A model generated the notes under the pieces. That model searched no databases. It was not told where the DNA came from and was given only the letters and a program-made list of their open reading frames with translations. DNA of 14,932 nt, taken from positions 1 through 14,932 of the IMG/VR virus record IMGVR_UViG_2660238190_000004. The stretch is one strand, 5' to 3'. The DNA comes from a virus (lineage: Duplodnaviria > Heunggongvirae > Uroviricota > Caudoviricetes). Shown in pieces: positions 10,060 through 10,454 of the stretch. Made by a program: the position numbers and the translations under genes. Every line of letters begins with the position of its first letter. Position 1 is the first letter of the stretch.

Positions 10060-10235
10060 TATTTAAAAATTTCAACGGGTAACTGATACCCTGCTAATCG
10101 CCTGATGCTTTCTTTTTCAGCAACGGGAAAGCAACAACCACACACCCGCCACCAAAACACCATCAGACAGCACCGACATTATCCGGCTGCTGAAGTCCAC
10201 CATCACCACCAGAAACAACAGGAGTGCAACCACAG

Positions 10236-10278
10236 CTGCTTAGAAGGCAATTGCTCTGTCCGGCTGAGCTAACAACGC
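10236..10278 (-). pseudogene. tRNA-like 5' half (acceptor, D-arm and anticodon arm with UCU anticodon); 3' half absent
   Basis: Minus strand GCGTTGT-TA-GCTC-AGCCGGACA-GAGC-A-ATTGC-CTTCTAA-GCAGC folds as a tRNA 5' half, but no T-arm (GGTTC...) or complementary acceptor 3' strand follows. Confidence 0.3.
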
Positions 10279-10292
10279 AGAATACCGATAAA

Positions 10293-10369
10293 TGGACCGC
10301 CATCGAGAACTCGAACCCCGCGCAACCAGCTTCGAAGGCTGGCGCTCTATCCCGATGAGCTAATGGTGG
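10293..10369 (-). tRNA. tRNA-Arg (anticodon UCG) candidate with non-canonical stems
   Basis: Hand-folded 77-nt cloverleaf: CCACCAT-TA-GCTC-ATCGGGATA-GAGC-G-CCAGC-CTTCGAA-GCTGG-TTGCG-CGGGG-TTCGAGT-TCTCG-ATGGCGG-T-CCA. It has an A-C mismatch in the acceptor stem and two G-U pairs in the T-stem, so it may be degenerate. Confidence 0.5.
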
Positions 10370-10378
10370 TATGTGATA

Positions 10379-10454
10379 TGGTGGCCCTTGCTGGATTTGA
10401 ACCAGCGACCTGGCGATTATGAGTCGCTCGCTCTCACCACTGAGCTAAAGGGCC
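10379..10454 (-). tRNA. tRNA with CAU anticodon, most similar to tRNA-Ile2 (lysidine type); could be annotated tRNA-Met
   Basis: GGCCCTTTAGCTCAGTGGTGAGAGCGAGCGACTCATAATCGCCAGGTCGCTGGTTCAAATCCAGCAAGGGCCACCA: perfect 7-bp acceptor stem, canonical D, anticodon and T arms, encoded CCA. Closely resembles recalled E. coli ileX. Confidence 0.85.

Follow-up and report, generated by a model that had tools for sequence, protein, structure and literature searches.

The tRNA array ileZ-argN-argO was reportedly first named in phage 933W. According to a long-standing idea, phages keep the tRNAs of such arrays for the translation of rare codons in phage or toxin genes, and Q-antiterminated late transcription is established for the region of lambdoid and Stx phages in which they are found. 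In Stx2a_1447 (AP012536), the array follows Q, tR' and a methylase gene and precedes the stx2AB cargo and the lysis genes; the gene names used here follow the GenBank annotation of this record. A second described system is the cargo (moron) module tciA/tciB of phage JLK-2012, which codes for a TerB-family protein and a DUF3927 small membrane protein whose gene, tciB, overlaps tciA. There, the complete module is located behind an Asn-Thr-Gly tRNA array. Literature searches for ileZ/argN/argO, for TciB and for rare-codon tRNAs of 933W returned nothing relevant, and the comparative papers on Stx phages that were consulted make no mention of these tRNAs. A paper describing a junction between argO and tciB was not found either, which says little, since the searches by gene name were also empty.

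The window analyzed here, i.e., the whole stretch of 14,932 nt given as IMG/VR record IMGVR_UViG_2660238190_000004, very probably carries a decayed copy of the late-region array of a lambdoid prophage. One of the three tRNAs is intact (ileZ), one is weakened by two point mutations (argN) and one was halved by a single deletion of 654 bp (argO). The late operon is encoded entirely on the minus strand in the order Q, terminator-like sites, methylase, tRNAs, esterase, holin and lysozyme, so that the array lies downstream of Q/tR', on the late-gene strand and before the lysis genes; all of its features are on the minus strand, and the distance from Q amounts to ~1.5 kb, with two terminator-like sites and the methylase gene in between (Table 1). 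Position, strand, order and spacing are the same as in Stx2a_1447. Sequence identity to this phage is 100% for ileZ, 92% for argN (6 of 77 nt differ) and 100% for the first 42 nt of argO. The two loci differ in that the last 35 nt of argO are lacking in the window, that its argN exhibits A3·C70 and G53·U61, and that the cargo behind the array is a fragment of tciB in place of stx2AB. Thus, the first and the second gene of the ileZ-argN-argO family are present, whereas the third, an intact argO, is not, and the assignment to the Stx-type array that a preliminary description had made holds. The locus is a pseudogenised remnant of an already known element, produced by ordinary prophage erosion, and represents no new mechanism or class of element.

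Gene prediction is in line with this picture. ARAGORN called two tRNAs in the whole window, one with the anticodon CAU and one Arg-UCG, i.e., neither three intact tRNAs nor the first one alone. The Rfam tRNA model, with a gathering score of 29, matched these two genes with 72.5 and 44.9 bits, respectively. In E. coli DA33133, in which the region is 100% identical, the RefSeq/PGAP annotation contains the tRNA-Ile and the tRNA-Arg, and the third position is blank. The cluster had been delimited as 10203-10454; all three elements do lie within this interval on the minus strand, but positions 10203-10236 belong to a truncated tciB/DUF3927 reading frame and not to a tRNA.

Table 1. Features of the tRNA array and of other parts of the window.
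Feature	Position	Strand	Evidence or remark
ileZ, tRNA-Ile2-type, CAU anticodon, 76 nt, encoded CCA end	10379..10454	-	ARAGORN, Rfam, PGAP, identity to Stx2a_1447 ileZ
argN, tRNA-Arg(UCG), weakened allele	10293..10369	-	ARAGORN, Rfam, PGAP, pair table
argO remnant, first 42 nt of tRNA-Arg(UCU), predicted to be non-functional	10237..10278	-	42/42 identity to Stx2a_1447 argO
Deletion junction, argO nt 42 to tciB nt 22	10236..10237	.	three-way and two-way alignments
tciB (DUF3927) remnant	10117..10236	-	alignment to JLK-2012 tciB and L091; Pfam; PGAP
RefSeq protein WP_000226111.1	10117..10233	-	38 aa, "DUF3927 family protein"
Methylase	10504..11553	-	upstream of tRNAs
Terminator-like sites after Q	12045..12030 and 11717..11700	-
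Q	12128..12949	-	late-operon context
STnc100 sRNA, one copy	9371..9559	-	Rfam, 132.5 bits
STnc100 sRNA, other copy	9835..10028	-	Rfam, 138 bits
iraM-like anti-adapter gene	9010..9345	+
SASA/NanS-type esterase gene	6893..8764
Tail-fibre module	1..2290
Tail-fibre assembly genes	234..554 and 1334..1918
Methyltransferase	611..1279
IS009	1377..1575	-	Rfam, full-length match, 223.8 bits
Nu1 (terminase small subunit), 3'-truncated	2273..2731
Beta_protein	3118..4185	+	Pfam
"sce7726 family"	4127..4747	-

The first gene, ileZ, is identical to the annotated ileZ of Stx2a_1447 over all 76 nt and agrees with its earlier description as a canonical, tRNA-Ile2-like tRNA. Its 5' 44 nt were found unchanged in 129 of 141 related loci (among the matches listed). 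Judged by this conservation, ileZ is intact and near-invariant and most likely still provides a tRNA-Ile2 that reads AUA once it has received its lysidine from the host enzyme TilS, for which it would be transcribed as part of the Q-dependent late transcript. The array as a whole is most likely expressed from this Q-antiterminated transcript as well. A scan of the region 9300-12300 reported no sigma-70-like promoter on the minus strand, and the number of matches was not above that of shuffled sequences. The arrangement TTGCAG-17-TATTAT before ileZ, which was seen by eye, fails the criteria of the scan and is not claimed as a promoter. In 13 loci (L036, L040, L076, L093 and others; among the matches listed), this same ileZ precedes another array, Lys(UUU)-Thr(UGU)-Gly(UCC), which indicates that ileZ serves as a conserved anchor for exchangeable tRNA cassettes.

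The second gene, argN, shares 71 of 77 nt with argN of Stx2a_1447 and retains the anticodon UCG, the D arm and the anticodon arm. It had been described as a tRNA-Arg with an acceptor-stem A-C mismatch and two G-U pairs in the T stem, and the ARAGORN drawing together with a count of base pairs places these at A3·C70 (10367/10299) and at G51·U63 and G53·U61 (U at 10306 and 10308). The gene forms a complete cloverleaf above the Rfam gathering score, but pairing in its acceptor stem is incomplete and the conserved G53-C61 pair is lost. Compared to the Stx2a allele, six positions differ; compared to the nearest clean allele, only two do (G3A and C61T). Both derived changes are transitions that hit stem pairs, G3A creating A3·C70 and C61T creating G53·U61, and an intermediate allele with C61T alone is present in other junction-bearing loci. 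The Rfam scores decrease from 58.4 bits for the L014 type and 55.9 bits for Stx2a_1447, both of them clean alleles, to 50.3 bits for the allele with C61T only (L027) and 44.9 bits for the window allele, which combines C61T and G3A and is the lowest of the four callable argN alleles that were scored. A scrambled argN (L002 type) is not called by Rfam.

Variation among relatives points in the same direction. Nucleotide diversity was determined for 53 unbiased loci in which all three tRNAs are called (among the IMG/VR matches listed) and amounts to 0.007 for ileZ (5' 44 nt only, as the remainder was the search key), 0.0125 for argO, 0.063 for argN and 0.195 for the spacer between argN and argO. 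The diversity of argN is thus ~5-9 times that of the neighboring tRNAs, and a stem mismatch other than G·U occurs in argN of 14 of the 53 loci compared to three for argO. The G53-C61 pair is kept in all 53 argN and all 53 argO genes of these intact arrays and is broken only in junction-bearing loci; therefore, the G53·U61 pair of the window disrupts an otherwise invariant pair. Of the three genes, argN is thus under the weakest constraint everywhere, and the window allele has gone one step along a frequently taken path to pseudogenisation. The gene probably encodes a poorly functional or non-functional tRNA and is becoming a pseudogene; the term "impaired" is deduced from base pairs, and the gene passes the Rfam threshold and is listed in RefSeq as an ordinary tRNA-Arg.

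It is doubtful, yet far from negligible as a possibility, that argN is a fully functional, polymorphic tRNA-Arg(UCG) in which A3·C70 and the G·U pairs are tolerated, so that argO alone would have been lost. All three programs recognize the gene (ARAGORN, PGAP, and Rfam with 44.9 bits, the threshold being 29), its anticodon, D arm and anticodon arm are undamaged, G51·U63 on its own is common in alleles of intact arrays, including those beside stx, and the exact window allele persists in 32 complete E. coli genomes. What argues for impairment instead is the lowest score of the four callable alleles together with two derived changes that both fall into stem pairs, one of them the G53-C61 pair retained throughout the 53 intact arrays (among the matches listed). 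In addition, argN evolves 5-9 times faster than its neighbors and is destroyed in 22 of 111 ileZ-bearing loci (among the matches listed), and the usage of CGA in the window genes is low (4.0 per 1000 codons).

The third gene is represented by a stub of 42 nt (10278 down to 10237) that is identical at all 42 positions to the 5' part of argO from Stx2a_1447. The stub reaches from the 5' strand of the acceptor stem over the D arm to the 5' strand and the loop of the anticodon arm and ends after 3 nt of the 3' strand, and the missing 35 nt contain the variable loop, the T arm, the acceptor 3' strand and the CCA end. This corresponds to the 5' half with a UCU anticodon, lacking the T-arm and the acceptor 3' strand, that had been recognized initially. 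Rfam reports a local, sub-threshold match for the stub (14.2 bits, E=4.2, model positions 10-42). ARAGORN finds no tRNA at the third position at thresholds of 90% and 80%, and at 70% with introns allowed yields implausible intron-containing calls only. The RNA fold of 10160-10285 on the minus strand is no more stable than that of shuffled sequences (z=+0.97) and contains no alternative tRNA-like fold. From its base-pairing potential, the argO stub is predicted to be dead, as the acceptor stem and the T arm cannot form.

Similarity to Stx phages ends past base 10237. The sequence beyond the breakpoint, which starts with GCTGTGGTTGC, is tciB from nt 22 onward, and positions 10117-10236 are 89-94% identical to JLK-2012, namely to tciB starting at its nt 22 and to the sequence that follows this gene. 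In contrast to the complete JLK-2012 module, tciA is gone from the window and tciB is truncated at its 5' end and frameshifted: the first seven codons are absent, as is the start codon that overlaps the tciA stop, and a one-base deletion (-1 frameshift) near the 3' end alters the C-terminus. The Pfam model DUF3927 (PF13064) is matched over profile positions 10-39 of 53 with 41.9 bits, compared to positions 4-50 with 71.8 bits for the full-length protein; a full-length match with a tciA-coupled start is thus not present. The RefSeq protein WP_000226111.1 corresponds to this fragment read from an internal GTG, 3 bases past the junction, and its annotation at this locus is most likely an artefact. 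On sequence grounds, the tciB fragment would be classed as a pseudogene. Some junction-bearing loci (L028, L032 and L035) do not carry the frameshift, indicating that the decay of tciB went on after the deletion.

The layout from which the window can be derived exists in relatives. Undeleted loci with the order methylase-ileZ-argN-argO-terminator-tciA-tciB-STnc100 and without stx are represented by the IMG/VR locus L091 and occur in 783 complete E. coli genomes; at least ~20 ileZ-bearing IMG/VR loci have tciA and tciB behind an intact argO. Both the upstream methylase and the downstream sequence of L091 are those of the window, and the alignment of the two runs from end to end apart from 654 nt found in L091 only. 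These contain the 3' half of argO, a predicted intrinsic terminator (L091 11365-11382), a spacer, tciA and the first 21 nt of tciB. At the parental breakpoints, which read AAGCA|ATCGG or AAGCA|ACCGG in argO and GTCTG|GCTGT in tciB, no bases are shared, which points to an illegitimate deletion of the end-joining type. As neither half a tRNA nor a reading frame without its start can represent an ancestral state, the direction must have been deletion and not insertion. L091 itself has the matching layout, yet several substitutions in argN, the spacer and tciB exclude it as the direct ancestor.

In the proposed scenario, the ancestor would have carried Q, tR', the methylase, ileZ, argN, argO, a terminator, tciA (TerB family), tciB (DUF3927) and STnc100 in this order. 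One end-joining deletion of 654 bp without microhomology, from argO nt 43 through tciB nt 21, would then have removed the 3' half of argO, the terminator after it, the whole of tciA and codons 1-7 of tciB. Subsequently, the junction would have been passed on by inheritance and through homologous recombination between prophages of E. coli and E. albertii, which would account for the several argN alleles and the two upstream contexts found beside it. The argN alleles and the tciB frameshift are distributed incongruently over junction-bearing loci, so that the order of events cannot simply be read from them and recombination has to be invoked. The suggestion that the third tRNA had been lost by a rearrangement of an Stx-type array was correct with regard to the truncation, caused by the 654-bp deletion; an Stx ancestor or a loss of stx is not needed, given the undeleted layout without stx. 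Nor do the irregularities of argN stem from this rearrangement, as the allele is two point substitutions away from the nearest clean one and other junction-bearing loci carry clean or scrambled argN.

Alternatively, as the preliminary description had implied, the junction could be a product of illegitimate recombination between two phages, an Stx phage that lost the argO 3' half together with stx and a carrier of tciAB. Lambdoid phages are notoriously mosaic, Stx2a phages are ~94% identical to the window on the methylase-ileZ-argN-argO side and carry stx where the window has tciB, and JLK-2012 demonstrates that tciA-tciB can follow another tRNA array. This origin is nonetheless improbable, since one type of genome that combines both flanks exists and is common (L091; 783 complete genomes), a single 654-bp deletion is sufficient and more parsimonious, and the tciB side exhibits nothing specific to stx phages. 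It is barely credible that the half tRNA is a remnant of an att site or belongs to a split or permuted tRNA gene. Prophage ends often carry partial tRNA copies, but att-site tRNA duplicates are 3' portions at prophage boundaries, and the stub is a 5' portion that lies within the late operon, behind the methylase and ahead of the lysis genes. A search for the argO 3' half across the window with up to three mismatches, covering inversion, translocation and a split gene, found none, and in undeleted relatives the missing part sits in place, by which both variants of this idea were refuted.

The junction resulting from the 654-bp deletion is widespread. A 101-nt junction probe is fully covered in 325 of 5426 complete E. 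coli genomes (6%). In ~2200 further E. coli genomes, the probe matches an annotated tRNA-Arg at 94-100%, with all matches ending at window base 10237, which puts the identity of the stub far beyond chance, and the undeleted form with argO, terminator and TerB-family gene is found in the 783 complete genomes mentioned above. A 23-nt string spanning the junction is matched exactly by 29 IMG/VR contigs, by four sequenced phage isolates and by the type strain of E. albertii, the only match when one genome per species was searched for 185,579 species. Frequencies of loci refer to ileZ-bearing loci collected from IMG/VR and hold among the matches listed: in this unbiased sample of 111 loci, the junction was found in three, and none had an argO 5' stub of another kind. 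Four argN alleles neighbor the junction, and the upstream context is either the methylase or Q/tR' directly. An artefact of assembly or sequencing has a practically negligible chance of being the cause, as nothing specific favors it apart from another unusual join of the window at ~2290, and the identical junction in 325 complete genomes, 29 viral contigs, four phage isolates and E. albertii must have been inherited. Accordingly, the junction is real, arose once, and was inherited and moved by recombination.

Other lesions affect the same part of the array. The scrambled argN, found in 22 of the 111 ileZ-bearing IMG/VR loci (among the matches listed), is usually located beside an intact argO (L002 at ~2440-2575, phage vB_EcoS-733R4; L005, L046, L098 and others). 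It retains the ends of the acceptor stem and part of the T arm around a center of ~45 nt of unrelated sequence, and neither ARAGORN nor Rfam calls it. In L053, L080 and L122, a hybrid directly follows ileZ, in which the 5' part of argN up to the anticodon stem is joined at GCCTTC to argO from the anticodon loop onward; its acceptor strands are unable to pair, ARAGORN calls none of the three, and it represents an independent deletion in the same array. Another independent deletion is found in L129, where, ~80-140 nt past the start of ileZ, a scrambled argN runs directly into the final ~30 nt of tciB, with GGTTGTTG shared by both at the join. Thus, short homology is present at the joins of the hybrid (GCCTTC) and of L129 (GGTTGTTG), whereas none exists at the window junction. 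The scrambled argN, the argN/argO hybrid, the argN-tciB fusion and the stub of the window are independent decay products of a hypervariable slot, with ileZ always spared.

Codon usage of the window genes was compared with this pattern of retention. AUA accounts for 14.3, AGA for 7.6, AGG for 5.0, CGA for 4.0 and CGG for 9.0 per 1000 codons. Relative to E. coli averages, AUA, AGA and AGG are enriched about threefold, whereas CGA is not. The enrichment of AUA but not of CGA fits a strong retention of ileZ and a weak retention of argN. As AGA and AGG are still used, the loss of argO is not explained by a lack of demand; since AGA and AGG are also read by argU, a tRNA of the host, an accident that was tolerated is the better interpretation.

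For annotation, the immediate consequence is that a 38-aa DUF3927 protein in RefSeq is a gene fragment with an unannotated half tRNA beside it; beyond this, the locus is of little importance. Its junction, being free of microhomology, provides a clean and datable marker for one lineage of a lambdoid prophage module in E. coli and E. albertii. The unequal constraint on the three phage tRNAs, with ileZ near-invariant, argO conserved and argN eroding in many lineages, also bears on the old idea that such tRNAs decode rare codons. It is very unlikely that the lost terminator and the fusion of the argO stub to the STnc100 leader have gained a function, with read-through from ileZ-argN driving STnc100 or with the product acting as a tRNA-half-like decoy RNA. 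If true, read-through to STnc100 or a decoy against tRNA-Arg anticodon nucleases could explain the persistence of the junction, which is present in E. albertii and in 6% of the complete E. coli genomes.

The sRNA family STnc100 has been described from prophages, where it is linked to esterase genes (bioRxiv 10.64898/2026.05.13.724894). The window contains two copies (Table 1), each ending in a terminator hairpin; the units are ~467 nt apart and ~73% identical over 205 nt. The proposal that the rearrangement of the array had also generated this adjacent repeat locus did not hold up, as the copies are diverged and loci with an identical junction possess either two copies (L002, L014 and L028) or one (L009, L013 and L034), with one copy in the undeleted L102. 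The duplication of STnc100 is therefore a separate polymorphism, independent of the deletion. An iraM-like anti-adapter gene is located on the opposite strand, between the STnc100 copy at 9371-9559 and the SASA/NanS-type esterase gene.

At the other end of the window, the tail-fibre module with two tail-fibre assembly genes and a methyltransferase gene abuts the 3'-truncated Nu1 gene near 2290. The window lacks a gene for the terminase large subunit as well as the head and tail genes, which marks the prophage as defective. In complete genomes, the two sides of ~2290 lie tens of kb or more apart (~30 kb in CP042336), and none has the same join, which goes back either to an extensive deletion in the prophage or to the assembly. 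A full-length match to the Rfam family IS009 lies within the second tail-fibre assembly gene. Between Nu1 and the lysis cassette, the genes for a Beta_protein and a "sce7726 family" protein form a convergent pair, which is possibly a defence or cargo (moron) module.
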